Below are positions 47,712-54,586 of a stretch of DNA of 64,000 nucleotides, piece by piece. How positions within the stretch are numbered: the first letter of the stretch is position 1; every line of letters starts with the position of its first letter. Location: assembly GCA_019057815.1 (NCBI GenBank), contig JAHLWR010000014.1, positions 48,690 through 112,689 on the forward strand, in the 5' to 3' direction. The stretch comes from Candidatus Heimdallarchaeota archaeon. GTDB lineage: Archaea > Asgardarchaeota > Heimdallarchaeia > Heimdallarchaeales > Heimdallarchaeaceae. The notes under the pieces were generated by a model that worked only from the letters and a program-made list of their open reading frames with translations, ran no database searches and had not been told where the DNA came from. The position numbers were made by a program, and so were the translations under genes.

Positions 47712-48768
47712 CTATTGTAATTTCTTTGTCTTCTTTAAGATTATCCTTGTGAGTAATAAGGGAAATACTAATATTAGAAGAGTAAAAGCGAAGTCTAATT
47801 GATTTTCATCTGTAGAATATATAGTAGGTTCATCGAGAGGATAGAGATCAACCGAACTTGCAGAACCATCAATGGGATAAGAACCTATCTCTAACCAATC
47901 GGACCAGAAATTACCTCCAAGTGTTGCAGTATCATACCAATAGTTATCAGTACAATCATCATACGCTTGAGAAGAACCTCCTAAGTTATTATCTATGAAA
48001 GTATTATGGTGAATGATATTACTATCAGACCAAAGTAATAAGTATACTCCATAGCCTTCATTTTCTTGTAGCAGATTGTAAGAAAGGACACAAAAATTAG
48101 AAGACAAAAGATGGATGCCGTCATAACCATTGTTGTTGCAAGTATTGTTTGCTACAGTAGAACTATCAGAAGAGAAAATATAGATGCTATAGTTGTTATT
48201 GTTGCAAGTGTTGTTAGAAACAGTAGAACCGCCAGAATGGGAAAGATAGCTGCCTATATTGTTATTGTTGCACATGTTGTTTGCGACAGTAGAATTACCA
48301 GAAGAGGAAAGCCTGATGCCCCAGTTGTTATTGCTGCATGTGTTGTTGGCAACAGTAGAACTGTCAGAATATCGAAGATAGATACCATCCCAGATGTTAT
48401 TGGTGCAAGTATTGTTAGTGACAGTTACTGTGCTATCAGCTACATTCTCGATAAAAATACCATACTTTGCTGCGTCAACATAGCAGTTACGAACAATGAA
48501 ATATTTAGTTGTACTAGTGATATAAATACCCTTGTCATTAGTTGTTGTAATATTGTAACCATCAATAACATAAGGATCTTCAGCTGTTCCTGTTCCTAGA
48601 AAAACCCCAAAATCACTATCACTTGTTATTTCAATAGGATCGTGAGGAGTTATACTCTAAAGATGTAGATCTATTATTATTCTCTTCAGCGGTTATTTGT
48701 ACATTGATATTCAATGCGTAGATTGATAATGTCAGTATTAATAGAACTATTGTTGTTTTCTTTCTCAT
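47712..48768 (-). pseudogene. Frameshifted beta-helix (NosD/CASH) surface protein, paralogue of 30506-32110
   Basis: Signal peptide from ATG 48768 (MRKKTTIVLL) is one base out of frame with TPHDPIEITSDSDF...GTAEDPY, which reads open to the stop at 47712. Confidence 0.85.
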
Positions 48769-48903: not shown

Positions 48904-49392
48904 TCACCAATTGTCAAGATTCGTGGGTGGTCGGTTATGTGTGTCTAAGAATCTATTATATTTTTCTGCTACTCGATAAGCATCAATATGACACCAAATT
49001 TGCAAACCAGCTACAACTGGAATTAAAAACCAAGCAACTGGCCACCATAAAATAAATGCAAAAATAAAGAATATTGTTATTCCAAAAACTCCAAATAAGA
49101 AACCTATACCTCTTCCTACTTTTCCAGCATACATTTGACCTGAGCCTAAAAGAACAAATATCGATAGAACTACTGCAAGACCTGGACTTTTGCGTTGAGA
49201 ATATACAGGTGATGGTTGATAAACAATAGTTGATTGCTGATAAGGACCGCTATACTGTTGTTGAGGGGGTTGTTGAGGGGATTGTTGTTGTAAAGAGGTG
49301 TCAACTTTTTGCGTTCCTTCAACACTAGCTCCGCAATTCTCACAAAATTTGTCACTTTCTTTTAACTTGCTTCCGCAACTATTACAAAACAT
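48904..49392 (-). CDS. Zinc-ribbon + Q/P linker + TM2-like membrane protein
   Basis: FCNSCG...FCENCG, QQP repeats and KSPGLAVVLS..LGSGQMYAG; AGGTG RBS before ATG 49392. Confidence 0.85.
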   Translation of the reverse strand: MFCNSCGSKLKESDKFCENCGASVEGTQKVDTSLQQQSPQQPPQQQYSGPYQQSTIVYQPSPVYSQRKSPGLAVVLSIFVLLGSGQMYAGKVGRGIGFLFGVFGITIFFIFAFILWWPVAWFLIPVVAGLQIWCHIDAYRVAEKYNRFLDTHNRPPTNLDNW

Positions 49393-49446
49393 TGTACACC
49401 TTTTTTCTTTTTGCATAATAAATATCATAAACATATTATTAAACAT

Positions 49447-49530
49447 ATCTTATTTTTTTTTTTTTGGTATAAAATCGATGTGAATATACAAAAAAAAGAT
49501 TCACCTATTGTAAGATCTATTCTCAATATC
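49447..49530 (+). repeat. Copy 1 (most diverged) of the ~100-bp gene-end/terminator repeat
   Basis: AAAATCGATGTGAATATACAAAAAAAAGATTCACCTATTGTAAGAT matches copies 2 and 3. Confidence 0.85.
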
Positions 49531-49556
49531 ATCTATTTTGTATCCCAATCTATCAA

Positions 49557-49751
49557 TTATCCTAGTATTGATTTAACTCTGCCCACTTTCCCATTTTCCA
49601 GTCTCACCTTGATTCCGTGAGGATGGCTACCCGAGTTGGTGAGAATAGTTTTTACCACACCTGTTGTCAAGTCTCCGGTTCTTTGATTATGTTTCTCCAA
49701 TATTGATACATTTGCACCGATGTGAATGTTTTTTCTAGTTCTTGAGGGCAT
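49557..49751 (-). CDS. YwbE (DUF2196) family protein
   Basis: NQRTGDLTTGVVKTILTNSGSHPHGIKVRLENGKVGRV. Confidence 0.92.
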   Translation of the reverse strand: MPSRTRKNIHIGANVSILEKHNQRTGDLTTGVVKTILTNSGSHPHGIKVRLENGKVGRVKSILG

Positions 49752-49886
49752 AATTGTATCTTCTTGTACTCTTTTTAATCTTTAATATTCTTAGCAGAAA
49801 AAATTGTGTAAAATTGAGTATATGAGTTTATAAAATGCAAGAGCACCAAGGTAAAACCATATCTATCATAAAAATATTGTTAAAAT

Positions 49887-49984
49887 ATCTTTATCGTTTT
49901 CGTTATGAAAATCGCTGGGAATATAAAAAAAAAGACTCACCTATTGTGAGATTTTTTTATCTATATCAAAGATCTTTGTAATTT
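49887..49984 (+). repeat. Copy 2 of the ~100-bp gene-end/terminator repeat
   Basis: ATCTTTATCGTTTTCGTTATGAAAATCGCTG...TCACCTATTGTGAGATT...TATCTATATCAAAG...GTAATTT, about 90% identical to copy 3 by eye. Confidence 0.92.
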
Positions 49985-50070
49985 CAAGGCTTAAGCTAAC
50001 GACAACCACACAGTAAAATATACTAGTAATGTGAGAGAAGGAGTTCTATATTTATCATTCTGAACTGAAA

Positions 50071-50445
50071 TTGTCCGAATATTTGAAAGTCTTTTTATAT
50101 CATAATGCTTTGAAAATAATGAGAAGGATGACAACCATCAGGACAACAGAAAATGAGCAAGTATCTTTCTTCTTGAAGATTTTGAGAAATCATTTTCAGG
50201 AAATAACTGATTTGTACAAAGTCAATTATTTGGGTATTTTTGGTTCATATATTCGAAATGAACAAAAAAATCACAGTGATCTTGATGTGTTGGTCGCTTT
50301 TAATAAACCTCCAAGTCTGTTTCAATATATTCGTTTAGAAAGCTATCTGAGTGAATTATTACAAGTCAAAGTCGATTTAGTTATGAAAGAAGCTCTAAAA
50401 CCCGCTATAGGAAAACAAATTCTCAAGGAGGTTGTGGAAGTATGA
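50071..50445 (+). CDS. mntA: Minimal nucleotidyltransferase (MNT) antitoxin
   Basis: GIFGSYIRNEQ...SDLDVLV and KVDLV; the true start is probably slightly downstream. Confidence 0.92.
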   Translation: MSEYLKVFLYHNALKIMRRMTTIRTTENEQVSFFLKILRNHFQEITDLYKVNYLGIFGSYIRNEQKNHSDLDVLVAFNKPPSLFQYIRLESYLSELLQVKVDLVMKEALKPAIGKQILKEVVEV

Positions 50446-50804
50446 ACATAAAACGACATTATATTGATTTTTTTAATGATATACTAGAATCTATTAAAAA
50501 AATTGAACAGTTTACAAAAGGGATGAATTATAATCAATTTGCAACTGACGATAAAACTTCATATGCGGTTATTAGAGCACTGGAAATCATAGGTGAAGCA
50601 GCAAAAGAAATACCTGAGAAGATAAAAGAAGAAAATCAAGAACTGCCTTGGAAAGAAATGGCTGGAATGAGAGATAAATTAATTCATGTGTATTTCGGAG
50701 TTAATCTAGAAGTTGTATGGGAAACCATAGAAGAAGATATACCAAAACTAAAGCCAATAATAGCACAGATTATTAAGGAAATGGATAAAAATCAGCTGGA
50801 ATAG
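50442..50804 (+). CDS. hepT: HEPN (DUF86) toxin
   Basis: LEIIGEAAK, PWKEMAGMRDKLIH.Y (RxxxxH); ATGA overlap with the MNT gene. Confidence 0.93.
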   Translation: MNIKRHYIDFFNDILESIKKIEQFTKGMNYNQFATDDKTSYAVIRALEIIGEAAKEIPEKIKEENQELPWKEMAGMRDKLIHVYFGVNLEVVWETIEEDIPKLKPIIAQIIKEMDKNQLE

Positions 50805-50841
50805 TAACTTTTTCTTTTTGTAAAATAAATATCACAAACAG

Positions 50842-50938
50842 ATCTTTATCGTTTTCGTTATGAAAATCGCTGTGAATATACAAAAAAAGAATCACCTATT
50901 GTGAGATTGACTATCTATATCAAAGCTCTTAGTAATTT
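50842..50938 (+). repeat. Copy 3 (resident): last ~47 nt of CDS 50892-51620 plus its T-tract terminator and hairpin
   Basis: Contains the stop codon (50892-50894), the minus-strand T-tract and the inverted repeat CGTTTTC-GTTAT-GAAAATCG. Confidence 0.92.
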
Positions 50939-51620
50939 TATCTTTACTTCTTGTGAAATACCTTTTCTTAGCGAGATAAAGGAGAACGATATTAAATAGA
51001 GCATAATTAATAGAAGGAATCAAATATCCCCAAACAGGAATGGCGATAACATAGCAGAAAAAACTAACCATAGCTAAAAACAATAGCTCTGTATGCTTAG
51101 CTGTGGCTGTAACGAAAAGTAAAGTGATATCTCCAAAATCTGGTAACGCGAAGAGAATAAAGCTAATCTTGAGATAAATAATTAACCATTCACCTGGAGG
51201 GAAATTAATGAATTCAAAATAAATTCTGAAAGATTCGTGAAATTGGATCAGAAGAAGAACAACGACTAAATTTAAGAGAGGAGCAAAACCGATCAAAAAA
51301 GCGTGCCAGGGGTTCTTCAAATCGCCAGATAAACTCATTGAACTCATATCATCCAAAGTGAAACTCATGTGAAAATTAACACGGACATCGTAACCAAGAA
51401 ACCTGATTGCTAGAGCATGGAAAAAAGTGTGCATGAACGACCCTGGAAGAAAAATCCATTTAAGATACTTCTTCAAGCCTTTAAGCAACCACTCAGAAAT
51501 AATCTCAAATAACAGTTTAAGGACAAAAACTAGCAAAATAACTAAAAAAGTTACCTTAACTACACCAGTAAAGATGCCTTCTATCTGGTAGAGAAGCTCA
51601 CTTATCCCAGATCCTGTCAC
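50892..51620 (-). CDS. Membrane metalloprotease-like protein (M50B/DUF3267-like) lacking the catalytic Glu
   Basis: PGSFMHTFFHAL...LG (HExxH to HTxxH), IGFAPL and LPDFGD; about six TM helices. Confidence 0.6.
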   Translation of the reverse strand: MTGSGISELLYQIEGIFTGVVKVTFLVILLVFVLKLLFEIISEWLLKGLKKYLKWIFLPGSFMHTFFHALAIRFLGYDVRVNFHMSFTLDDMSSMSLSGDLKNPWHAFLIGFAPLLNLVVVLLLIQFHESFRIYFEFINFPPGEWLIIYLKISFILFALPDFGDITLLFVTATAKHTELLFLAMVSFFCYVIAIPVWGYLIPSINYALFNIVLLYLAKKRYFTRSKDKITKSFDIDSQSHNR

Positions 51621-52514: not shown

Positions 52515-52587
52515 TTTTGTGTGACCTTGCCATGTCTTAGGAGAACGAATTCTCCCATTGAAAAATTGTCGCTGCCTTTTATATACC
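52511..52587 (-). promoter_or_regulatory. Strong TATA box, UUCG-loop hairpin and 15-codon leader ORF upstream of the TFB-like gene
   Basis: TATATAAA at 52585-52578; ATG 52558 MGEFVLLRHGKVTQK* overlapping the main ATG (ATGA); GGAGAA-TTCG-TTCTCC at 52555-52540. Confidence 0.55.
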
Positions 52588-52888
52588 TAGCGTACCACGT
52601 TGCAGTTAGATTGCAGTTTTTGTTTTTTTGTCTGCTTTTTTTCGTGGGGTTTATATAGTAAAATATTTTTTCCTCCCCTTTTTTTCAGAAAAGTGTCAAT
52701 ACCTTGATATTTACTTCTAAGTGCTTAGATTGCTTTCTTCCACACTTTTTAAACGTATCATATAGTATACTCCTTGTTTTTAAGTACTTACACAGTTCTT
52801 ATCTCAGTTCTAATAGCATTTTTAGTACTACAGATTCAATAATTTGAATATTCAACCTAGATTGCCTAATTAGTACACAATGGATTTC

Positions 52889-54586
52889 TTATGAAATTAC
52901 TATTGTTTTCATCAAATTGGTTTGAACTAGGAAATACTCAGGGTCAGCATTGAGGTTAGAATGAGTTAGTACAAAATTAATTGTTGAATCTACAATAAAT
53001 GAAGTGTTGAGAAAACCTCTAATTTGATAATTACCCGATTTATAGAGTACAAAGATGCTACCTTGTGTTGTATTCAAGATTCTGTATTCCAATTGTGGTT
53101 CTTCTGCAATGATTTCAATATGACTAAAATATCTAAATGAGTCAAATAACAAATTATTGTCACTATCAATAACTATAGAATCGACTATAATGATATCCCC
53201 ACGCATAAAATCAGGAACATTGTGATGTATATATTGGAAATTAATTTCCATTACAAAAGTAGAATTTTCATATAATTCTACTTCTTTAATCGTTATTGAC
53301 GAATTACTAGACATATTCATACCAAAAGCATCATCAATTTCAAAATTGTTTATATTCCAACCATCACAAACAGCTTCTCCCTGGATGATCAAATTACCAG
53401 GGAGCCCTAGAATTAAAGTTATTAGAATAATGGAGATTGCTTGTTCTATTTTTATCTTTTTGTTATAATTAATTGGAACGATTTTATCTACTTCTTTAAC
53501 AATCTTATCCTCTTCTTCAGTCTTATCAGTTTTTTTTCTCATTTTTAGTTTATATATTAGAAATAGTATACTTGAAGATATTATTAACGGAATTATAAAT
53601 AACAAAAGGACCAGAATAAAACCTGCTAGAATTTCGCTTGAAATTGCAGAAAAGTCCAAATTGAAAGTTAATTCTAGAGTGTAGAAGAAGTTTAAATAGT
53701 AAAATAACTCATCGTTCCAGAAAGATATAGAAAACAAGGTTATAGCTATAAAAAATATACTAGCTATCGAAAGTGCAAGAATTTTTATTTTTCGTGATTT
53801 TGAAATTACAGGTTCCTTGATCTTGCTTTGTAGCTTTGAAAGTATTAAGAAAATCACACTTGTTGCAAGAATATAAGTTAAGTAAACACCCAAAAGATTA
53901 AATTTTCCAGTAATAGGTAAAGTTAAAAGAAAAGCACAACCGAACATTCCAACTAGGCTAAAAGTATAAATCCCGTAGAATGGAATAACTGCAATTATTT
54001 GCTCCACTAGTTCTTCTTTACTATTTAACCTCTTATGTTCTCTTGAACTCCTTGTTTTTTTCGAAGAAGCAATTAAGATCACCCCTTTTAGAAACAGCAA
54101 TAAAGGAGTAAGAAATATTAAGAACAAGAAAAGAACATTCACATTACTTGAATAACTATTTGCTCCACCAAGAAGCATTACAGCTGCCCCTCCACCATGA
54201 GACGAGTATCGTATGTGAGCCATTAATCTTACCAGCTCATCTATATGATATACAGCGAAAAAAACACTAAATAATCCCACTTTTTTTGGGTAGAGTCTAG
54301 AAAGAAGGAAACCAGTTAGTACAAGAATTGCACTTAATATATAAATAGCTAAATCGTTTTTTTCATCTGAGATATATGCGTCCATCTCGACCAAGCTATA
54401 CTCTATTGTTCCGTTAGCTGAAGATATATCTAGAGTTTGAATCGTTTGATCATATAGAGTTAACTTTGATATTCTTATAGTAGCAATAAGTATAAAACCA
54501 ACAATTATCAAAACAGAGAAGATTAAAACAATATAATCCCAGTATTTCTTCCTGGAGATGAAAAAATTCAATCTTGTTCTCCTCAT
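52889..54586 (-). CDS. Polytopic membrane protein with C-terminal extracellular beta-rich domain
   Basis: About nine TM helices and N-x-S/T sequons in the C-terminal domain; no recognised family. Confidence 0.75.
   Translation of the reverse strand: MRRTRLNFFISRKKYWDYIVLIFSVLIIVGFILIATIRISKLTLYDQTIQTLDISSANGTIEYSLVEMDAYISDEKNDLAIYILSAILVLTGFLLSRLYPKKVGLFSVFFAVYHIDELVRLMAHIRYSSHGGGAAVMLLGGANSYSSNVNVLFLFLIFLTPLLLFLKGVILIASSKKTRSSREHKRLNSKEELVEQIIAVIPFYGIYTFSLVGMFGCAFLLTLPITGKFNLLGVYLTYILATSVIFLILSKLQSKIKEPVISKSRKIKILALSIASIFFIAITLFSISFWNDELFYYLNFFYTLELTFNLDFSAISSEILAGFILVLLLFIIPLIISSSILFLIYKLKMRKKTDKTEEEDKIVKEVDKIVPINYNKKIKIEQAISIILITLILGLPGNLIIQGEAVCDGWNINNFEIDDAFGMNMSSNSSITIKEVELYENSTFVMEINFQYIHHNVPDFMRGDIIIVDSIVIDSDNNLLFDSFRYFSHIEIIAEEPQLEYRILNTTQGSIFVLYKSGNYQIRGFLNTSFIVDSTINFVLTHSNLNADPEYFLVQTNLMKTIVIS

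Follow-up and report, generated by a model that had tools for sequence, protein, structure and literature searches.

In the orphan-module arrays of rhs and cdiA genes, an incoming module replaces the C-terminal tip of the encoded protein and brings its own immunity gene (C-terminal displacement), while Campbell-type (pop-in/pop-out) integration and homology-facilitated illegitimate recombination have been encountered mainly in bacteria, in laboratory work or after transformation. Among archaea, the integrated mobile genetic elements (iMGEs) of thaumarchaea form tandem arrays at the 3′-distal ends of protein-coding and tRNA genes (PMC6563490); archaeal integrons (PMC9668308) and the Campbell-type or illegitimate recombination of transformed DNA (PMC8116780, PMC3410848) provide further systems for comparison. 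Here, we describe a locus in a stretch of 64,000 nucleotides (the window) from Candidatus Heimdallarchaeota archaeon (contig JAHLWR010000014.1), in which the 3′ end of a membrane-protein gene, designated TM242, is repeated so that its copies bound two mini-cassettes, a toxin-antitoxin (TA) module and a DUF2196/YwbE gene. The locus probably represents a cassette array that lacks an integrase and varies between strains; host recombination would have built and reshuffled it, and the newest cassette would be the one adjoining the gene.

Organization of the Array

An original prediction, made from the letters of the window, had described three direct copies of a gene-end unit of ~100 bp, and all of its elements were located at the positions and in the order given there. 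Read on the minus strand from TM242 to a Zn-ribbon gene, the order is TM242 end (copy 3), inverted MNT-HEPN, copy 2, DUF2196/YwbE, copy 1, and Zn-ribbon gene. The features are compiled below, with coordinates as positions in the window; G000 denotes the genome of the window (3.7-Mb assembly, 95% complete).

50892–51620, minus strand: anchor gene TM242, an open reading frame (ORF) for a polytopic membrane protein of 242 amino acids (aa).
50849–50945, minus strand: unit copy 3 (segment A and hairpin), the native 3′ end of TM242 with its last 47 nt including the TGA stop, a T7 tract and a weak bulged hairpin.
50809–50848, minus strand: B3, a TATA-like segment of 40 nt, 85% identical to B1 (49402–49441).
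49985–50814, plus strand: cassette 1, a predicted type VII TA module with its own promoter; MntA-like MNT gene at 50119–50445, HepT-like HEPN gene at 50442–50804.
49872–49984, minus strand: unit copy 2, a non-coding duplicate of TM242 tail, T-tract and hairpin, 87–91% identical to copy 3 (87% by alignment, 91% by blastn).
49787–49871, minus strand: spacer from copy 2 to cassette 2, a decayed B-like stretch (~55% identical, counted by eye) and ~60 nt absent from L072, a related contig introduced below.
49547–49786, minus strand: cassette 2, 240 nt with a single gene, i.e., a 35-nt promoter region, the DUF2196/YwbE coding sequence at 49557–49751 (PF09962), and ~10 nt.
~49447–49540, minus strand: unit copy 1, 73–79% identical (73–76% to copies 2 and 3 when the copies are aligned), the most decayed duplicate and the oldest, with an A-run in place of the hairpin.
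49402–49446, minus strand: B1, a TATA-like putative promoter/leader immediately upstream of the Zn-ribbon ATG at 49392.
48904–49392, minus strand: gene of a Zn-ribbon membrane protein (Pfam zinc-ribbon families), the ancestral downstream neighbour, which closes the array.

The measured identities agree with the earlier estimate that copy 2 is about 90% identical to the gene end and copy 1 more diverged. The repeated unit takes in the last 15 codons of TM242, and because the C-terminal K(S/G)F(D/E) tail is kept in other genera, copy 3 has to be regarded as the native end of the gene. TM242 matched no family in a Pfam search; its orthologues occur in 26 of 41 related genomes, each adjoining a 272-aa gene which lies upstream, and this pair is kept throughout the family. 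Since segment B directly precedes the Zn-ribbon start, the ancestral unit can be read as gene end, terminator and promoter of the next gene, the promoter role of B1 being suggested by its position and its TATA-like sequence. In genus g3, a Zn-ribbon gene is also found on the same strand 2–4 kb downstream of TM242, and between the two lie genes for a 310-aa protein, a radical-SAM-like protein and a membrane protein. The 40-nt TATA-like segment common to copies 3 and 1 had been overlooked in the original prediction. With this segment included, copy 3 is a mosaic, its A segment and hairpin resembling copy 2 and its B part resembling copy 1; such a mosaic would fit the arrival of a cassette from a related donor with a copy of the unit attached, and fits a simple local duplication of the target less well. 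B3 is oriented antisense into the 3′ end of the HEPN gene and, as a copy of the Zn-ribbon promoter, could drive an antisense transcript across the TA module.

Cassette 1 is predicted to be a HepT/MntA (HEPN-MNT) type VII TA module, a class characterized by an RNase toxin that AMPylation neutralizes; its two genes overlap by 4 nt, match PF01909 (MNT, E 9e-14) and PF01934 (HEPN, E 6e-33), and carry the catalytic motifs GS...DLD and RX4H (RDKLIH), which are readable in the translations. The gene content of the slot is restricted to MNT, HEPN and DUF2196. Both cassettes are single-copy in G000, no inverted repeats were found at their ends, and each retains across genera 35–110 nt of its own upstream, TATA-containing DNA, the TA module being inverted with respect to the array. 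At the junction of cassette 1 with B3, a 7-nt microhomology (CTTTTTC) is present, and at its junction with copy 2, a filler of 26 nt (49985–50010). The filler and spacer segments (49787–49871 and 49985–50072) found no match in other cassette loci or in the G000 genome.

The unit matches only these three places in the whole G000 assembly (E 1e-66, 5e-32 and 1e-15; next best match, E 0.005), and its matches in relatives are confined to this genus and to the orthologous locus. It is thus neither a chance similarity nor a dispersed miniature inverted-repeat transposable element (MITE) unrelated to the gene, a possibility that had been raised along with the original prediction and was settled by this genome-wide search. 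A transposon or MITE is also rejected on structural grounds, given that terminal inverted repeats are missing, the sequence is confined to one locus, and the duplications (40–150 nt) vary in length. Metagenome and genome collections were scanned with the TM242 protein as query. No 3′-end repeats were detected when the DNA following the TM242 orthologue was inspected in 16 genomes from other genera; a search of IMG/VR with a degenerate unit core for an attP carried by a virus returned nothing, and no RNA family was recorded by Rfam within 49300–51100 at E values up to 1.

Variation within the Genus

Five sequences of the same genus were compared: G000, its sister species G001, and the metagenome contigs L070 (JABUBN010002204), L071 (JABUBP010000842) and L072 (Ga0114920_10022266). 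G001, L070 and L071, which are independent assemblies, have the identical three-copy array. L072 shows the order TM242-unit-DUF2196-unit-Zn-ribbon gene; missing are the TA cassette and exactly one copy of the unit, so that presence and absence of the TA cassette are precise at the unit and L072 represents the empty-site arrangement for cassette 1. The array therefore varies between relatives, as expected for the small, separately mobile cassettes at one site that had been proposed, and the region downstream of the TM242 orthologues does not have a fixed arrangement. Deletion by recombination is a possible origin of the L072 state.

Nucleotide identities between G000 and the other lineages amount to 90–93% for TM242, 87% for DUF2196 and 90–91% for the Zn-ribbon gene, versus 97.9–99.2% for MNT-HEPN. 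The same picture is obtained from synonymous divergence (dS) relative to G000, with 0.30–0.60 for TM242, 0.35 for the 272-aa gene and 0.22 for the Zn-ribbon gene, as opposed to 0.030 for HEPN and 0.016–0.032 for MNT, i.e., values 10–20 times lower in the TA module than in its flanks. The few differences within the TA module are mostly non-synonymous, hence purifying selection cannot account for its similarity. The block of low divergence extends from ~50822 to 49954, comprising cassette 1, ~14 nt of B3 and ~30 nt of copy 2, and stops within tens of nucleotides of the cassette at either side. Copies 3 and 2 are ~10% apart in every lineage and, consequently, older than the cassette now between them, which is only 2% apart between lineages. 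Judged by these divergences, the TA cassette is evidently much younger than its flanks.

Across lineages, the unit copies cluster by position (the orthologues of copy 2 are 94–98% identical), and copy 1 is the most decayed. The absence of the TA cassette from L072, its low dS, and the advanced decay of the distal copy support an order of events in which DUF2196 arrived first and the TA cassette, next to the gene, would be the youngest, in line with the polarity originally proposed. Superimposed on the clustering by position are variants at the TM242 stop that are specific to a lineage and common to paralogous copies within one genome, namely TAGGTG (G000, copies 1 to 3), TAAGTG (L072, each of its two copies), and TCGTTG (L070 and L071, copies 3 and 1). 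Such sharing points to short-tract gene conversion; on this sequence evidence, the unit copies demonstrably recombine with each other by homologous recombination. The breakpoints of identity differ between lineage pairs, within the limits of five sequences and few informative sites.

In the gene for a 565-aa membrane protein (52889–54586), dS to G001 and L071 drops to 0.07–0.10, compared with 0.3 in neighbouring genes, and this may be taken as a sign of recombination patches between these species. G001 carries an additional 367-aa gene between the 565-aa and 272-aa genes (L050:2014–3117, G001:C11), a site occupied in G000 by 374 nt of intergenic DNA (52515–52888); no direct repeats flanking this gene were found. 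In L071 (924–1981), an additional 297-aa gene is located upstream of the 565-aa gene; ahead of it lie 137 nt that copy the 3′ end of the 565-aa gene (52901–53036) with 90% identity, so that here a unit copy appears to have travelled with its cargo. A NosD/beta-helix gene beside the array (47712–48275) belongs to a very large paralogous family with 164 tblastn hits in the genome, many of them in tandem.

The Cassettes at Other Loci and in Other Genera

In G017, a member of another genus whose TM242 orthologue is 54% identical in protein sequence, the TA cassette was found with 89% nucleotide identity over 50072–50803. It resides at an unrelated locus (L076:1260–2313, G017:C39), directly upstream of an 80-aa gene and flanked by two direct repeats of 152 nt which are 87% identical. 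These repeats consist of the cassette's own promoter and first codons (MRRMTT) and are homologous to the promoter and start of the neighbouring 80-aa gene; entry of a circular cassette by crossover in the promoter would give this layout. The G000 copy of the 80-aa gene (G000:C1:96321–98075, locus L092) is apparently split by an insertion of ~1.39 kb, the matches to the G017 gene ending at 96484 and restarting at 97872.

The DUF2196 cassette, with the same 240 nt, recurs in genus g3 at two or more other loci, where it is 80–88% identical, a similarity as high as that between the two species of the host genus. In G020, G010 and G003, it is flanked by direct repeats of 50–66 nt of local intergenic DNA. 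From these sequence matches, both cassettes can be concluded to move between genera and between loci. Some genomes of g3 have in addition a related MNT-HEPN pair (59–73% protein identity) upstream of the 272-aa gene (L051:9158–9852, L052:6620–7161, L053:271–627), which is partly degraded in G006 and G008.

Comparison of G000 with itself revealed many pairs of direct repeats, 55–270 nt long, around one or two genes. A second TA cassette, composed of HEPN (PF05168) and MNT (NTP_transf_2), lies between direct repeats of 119 nt (G000:C31:20603–22210, L087:1604–3211) derived from a 510-aa gene, of which they take in the 5′ end and the DNA upstream; in G001, the corresponding site is precisely empty and holds one unit. 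Other cargo bounded by repeats in G000 includes a NosD-like gene behind the tail of a PARP-zinc-finger gene, and a TnpB and Dus pair behind the tail of a DUF123 gene, among others; the state of these loci in G001 is variable but complex. A 449-aa ORF was noticed between direct repeats that hold the 3′ end and trailer of the 16S rRNA gene (G000:C23:2024–3881), and the trailer motif recurs at G000:C10:1255–3400. In total, five independent insertions with local duplications of 40–150 nt were recorded, i.e., the TA cassette in the array, in G017 and at C31, and DUF2196 in the array and in g3.

These observations bear on the best surviving alternative, according to which the array is a static relic: the unit would have been triplicated once in the ancestor of the genus, L072 would have lost its cassette through a single deletion in which copies 3 and 2 recombined, and the TA module would owe its low divergence to an allele sweep by ordinary gene conversion, with insertion no longer going on. 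The order is indeed identical in four of the five assemblies, a crossover of copy 3 with copy 2 would likewise yield the L072 junction, L072 is nested among cassette-bearing lineages in the DUF2196–Zn-ribbon segment, and divergence is patchy anyway, as documented by the 565-aa gene. On the other hand, a relic leaves the appearance of both cassettes at other loci in another genus without explanation, as well as the clean empty site of the second TA cassette in G001; furthermore, it has to accommodate a tract of low divergence that ends so close to the cassette on both sides, and repeat copies that are older than the sequence they enclose. We therefore regard a static relic as unlikely, although it deserves more weight than the alternatives that follow.

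Recombinases and Site Structure

The tyrosine recombinase family (PF00589) was matched in all control genomes and in many relatives, but by nothing in G000 or G001; within the family Heimdallarchaeaceae, such matches are only sporadic, and an enzyme of the XerA type thus seems to be missing from both species. The SSV-type integrase domain (PF16795) was also not detected in G000. Neither a tyrosine- nor a serine-recombinase domain is encoded on the array contig, which confirms the earlier remark that no recombinase lies in the 64 kb. The genome-wide listing, which had been called for at the outset, produced six serine-recombinase matches in G000; three of them are intact genes (C1:82593–83315, C24:157167–157916 and C21:46262–47098) for proteins of 240–278 aa which are 41–45% identical to each other, have the catalytic YxRVSTxxQ motif and a C-terminal helix-turn-helix (HTH), and are surrounded by ordinary or housekeeping host genes. 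No relevant direct repeats flank these three genes.

As for the site itself, the hairpins of the unit fold with z-scores between +0.9 and −2.6 relative to shuffled sequences (z = +0.46 for copy 3), and their stems are broken in several copies without compensation; a structured att site or functional hairpin was rejected, since the folds are no better than those of shuffles. Among the units of 12 repeat-bounded loci, the search for a common motif yielded only runs of T and A.

One may still envisage a dedicated recombinase that acts in trans, recognizes the unit in the way of an att or res site, and transfers the cassettes in circular form, in the manner of an integron or resolvase, with the solo serine recombinases of 240–278 aa as the only candidates. 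Resolvase res sites span a range of lengths that includes the ~100–135 bp of the unit; gain and loss are precise at the unit, repeats flank one and the same cassette at several loci, and the three intact paralogues with catalytic motif and HTH are available among the host genes. Against such an enzyme stand the missing tyrosine recombinase and IntI in G000 and G001, the lack of any recombinase on the contig, the absence of a motif common to units of different loci, the poor and uncompensated hairpins, and the mosaic of copy 3. In addition, serine integrases leave only ~2 bp of identity instead of repeats of 100 bp. This alternative is accordingly held to be somewhat more doubtful than a static relic. 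The originally proposed analogy to integrons or att sites, taken as a dedicated site-specific system, fails for related reasons: there is no IntI, no attC-like structure and no shared core motif, the cassettes have their own promoters, and the mosaic of copy 3 is not explained by a single fixed crossover. Of the two agents suggested at that time, an enzyme in trans or homologous recombination, the latter fits, gene conversion being seen and tyrosine recombinases not being found in G000 and G001, whereas positive support for the former did not emerge.

Finally, misjoined strain variants in a metagenome-assembled genome (MAG) are a highly improbable source of the repeats, for although every sequence at hand is a MAG or metagenome contig and L070 and L071 look recombinant exactly at copy 3, four assemblies from different studies agree on the three-copy order, the copies are 10–25% diverged and orthologous by position, and the unit (100–135 nt) is presumably shorter than typical short reads.

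Proposed Mechanism

For an array assembled by host recombination, the following course may be proposed. The repeated unit would be the native TM242 end, i.e., the last 15 codons, the stop and an oligo-T terminator, in part together with the promoter that precedes the next gene. DUF2196 and, later, MntA/HepT next to the gene would have entered as mini-cassettes with promoters of their own, each coming to lie between unit copies. The first arrival at a new locus may have been an illegitimate, microhomology-guided join that duplicated 40–150 bp of the target. Thereafter, a crossover between the flanking copies could loop a cassette out as a circle carrying one unit copy, and a Campbell-type single crossover within the 100–135-bp unit could bring it into a related genome; alternatively, linear DNA might be swapped by double crossover. 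Gene conversion would keep the unit copies alike, and the addiction conferred by the TA module would aid its persistence, so that a dedicated recombinase would not be needed.

Several points weigh against this course of events or limit it. Campbell-type entry requires a circle that already bears the unit, and for this reason it cannot explain the first arrival at each locus. The five independent insertions with their duplications suggest instead that the insertion process itself may duplicate the target; candidates for the primary event are a template switch during replication, fill-in of a staggered break, and homology-facilitated illegitimate recombination. In G000, the donor-like parts of copies 3 and 2 add up to ~44 nt, which is less than one full unit, and a single simple crossover from one donor is thus a misfit. 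B3 differs between G000 and the other lineages at 4–5 of 40 positions, in spite of the near-identical cassette adjoining it. L070 and L071 are identical from B3 onward, yet only 93% identical in TM242, and the break at copy 3 may be due either to real recombination or to a strain chimera; in this context one should recall that metagenome and MAG contigs, on which the whole comparison is based, can be chimeric at repeats. Lastly, a helper role of the three intact solo serine recombinases in the genome is possible.

Along these lines, a more far-reaching scheme can be considered, tentatively and with about the same reserve as the static relic. Heimdallarchaeaceae may possess a previously undescribed, enzyme-driven movement of promoter-plus-gene mini-cassettes of 0.24–1.4 kb (TA, DUF2196 and others) into gene ends and intergenic DNA, each event duplicating 40–150 bp of the target and thereby giving arrays that extend themselves; the agent might be the solo serine recombinases or a template switch coupled to replication. 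The length of the duplications would be close to that of an archaeal Okazaki fragment or of a res site.

Significance

It is poorly understood how TA modules and other very small accessory genes spread when they encode neither a transposase nor an integrase, and Asgard archaea have hardly been explored for mobile DNA. The present locus offers a dated example from several genomes, in which TA (830 nt) and DUF2196 (240 nt) cassettes are seen across genera and loci, each between duplicated local DNA. The same mini-cassettes can be traced across loci, species and genera, together with clean empty sites and gene conversion. If general, as other loci of the genome suggest, the process would constitute a cheap route of gene capture without a dedicated recombinase, and could explain some of the gene flux in that lineage of archaea which is nearest to eukaryotes. 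The locus also supplies concrete junctions that can be sought in sequencing reads.

Comparison with Known Systems

Like the thaumarchaeal iMGEs, the array has direct repeats in which the 3′ end of the target gene is duplicated without damage to the gene, close relatives with either an empty or a filled site, and one site used repeatedly, so that arrays result. The iMGEs, however, measure kilobases, carry a gene for a tyrosine integrase or casposase, and are bounded by att sites that in most cases are shorter than 70 bp (PMC6563490), whereas the cassettes described here measure 240 and 830 nt and come without a recombinase, in a host genome in which no tyrosine recombinase was found. Of the features by which an integrative element is recognized, duplication of the gene end with an intact gene and an empty site (L072) are present, and an element-encoded recombinase is absent. 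Aloposons, which are giant-gene elements at tRNA sites (PMC8813620), were considered and are unrelated.

An ordered array of one- and two-gene cassettes, TA modules as typical cargo, and the newest cassette in proximal position are reminiscent of integrons. Unlike these, the array has neither IntI nor attI, and its boundaries are 73–91% identical sequence copies of the TM242 end rather than attC sites, which are imperfect palindromes conserved in structure and not in sequence. Moreover, each cassette has a promoter of its own and the TA cassette is inverted, while integron cassettes are mostly promoterless, point in one orientation and depend on a common promoter. The orphan-module arrays of rhs and cdiA resemble the locus in growing from a gene 3′ end, in the repeated gene-end fragments that separate the modules, and in the position of the newest module next to the gene; they differ in that the TM242 tail is native and conserved in other genera, and in that the cargo is unrelated to the anchor gene.

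In the literature searched, repeat-flanked HEPN-MNT cassettes, integrase-free cassettes in Asgard archaea, and a recurrent natural mini-cassette architecture of this kind were not found described, which sets the locus apart from Campbell-type integration and homology-facilitated illegitimate recombination. Nevertheless, the likeness to the latter two processes includes an insert between direct repeats of recipient DNA, microhomology and filler at the illegitimate junction, and loss by recombination of the repeats. The finding belongs with the class of recombination-built insertion slots and tandem att-like arrays.

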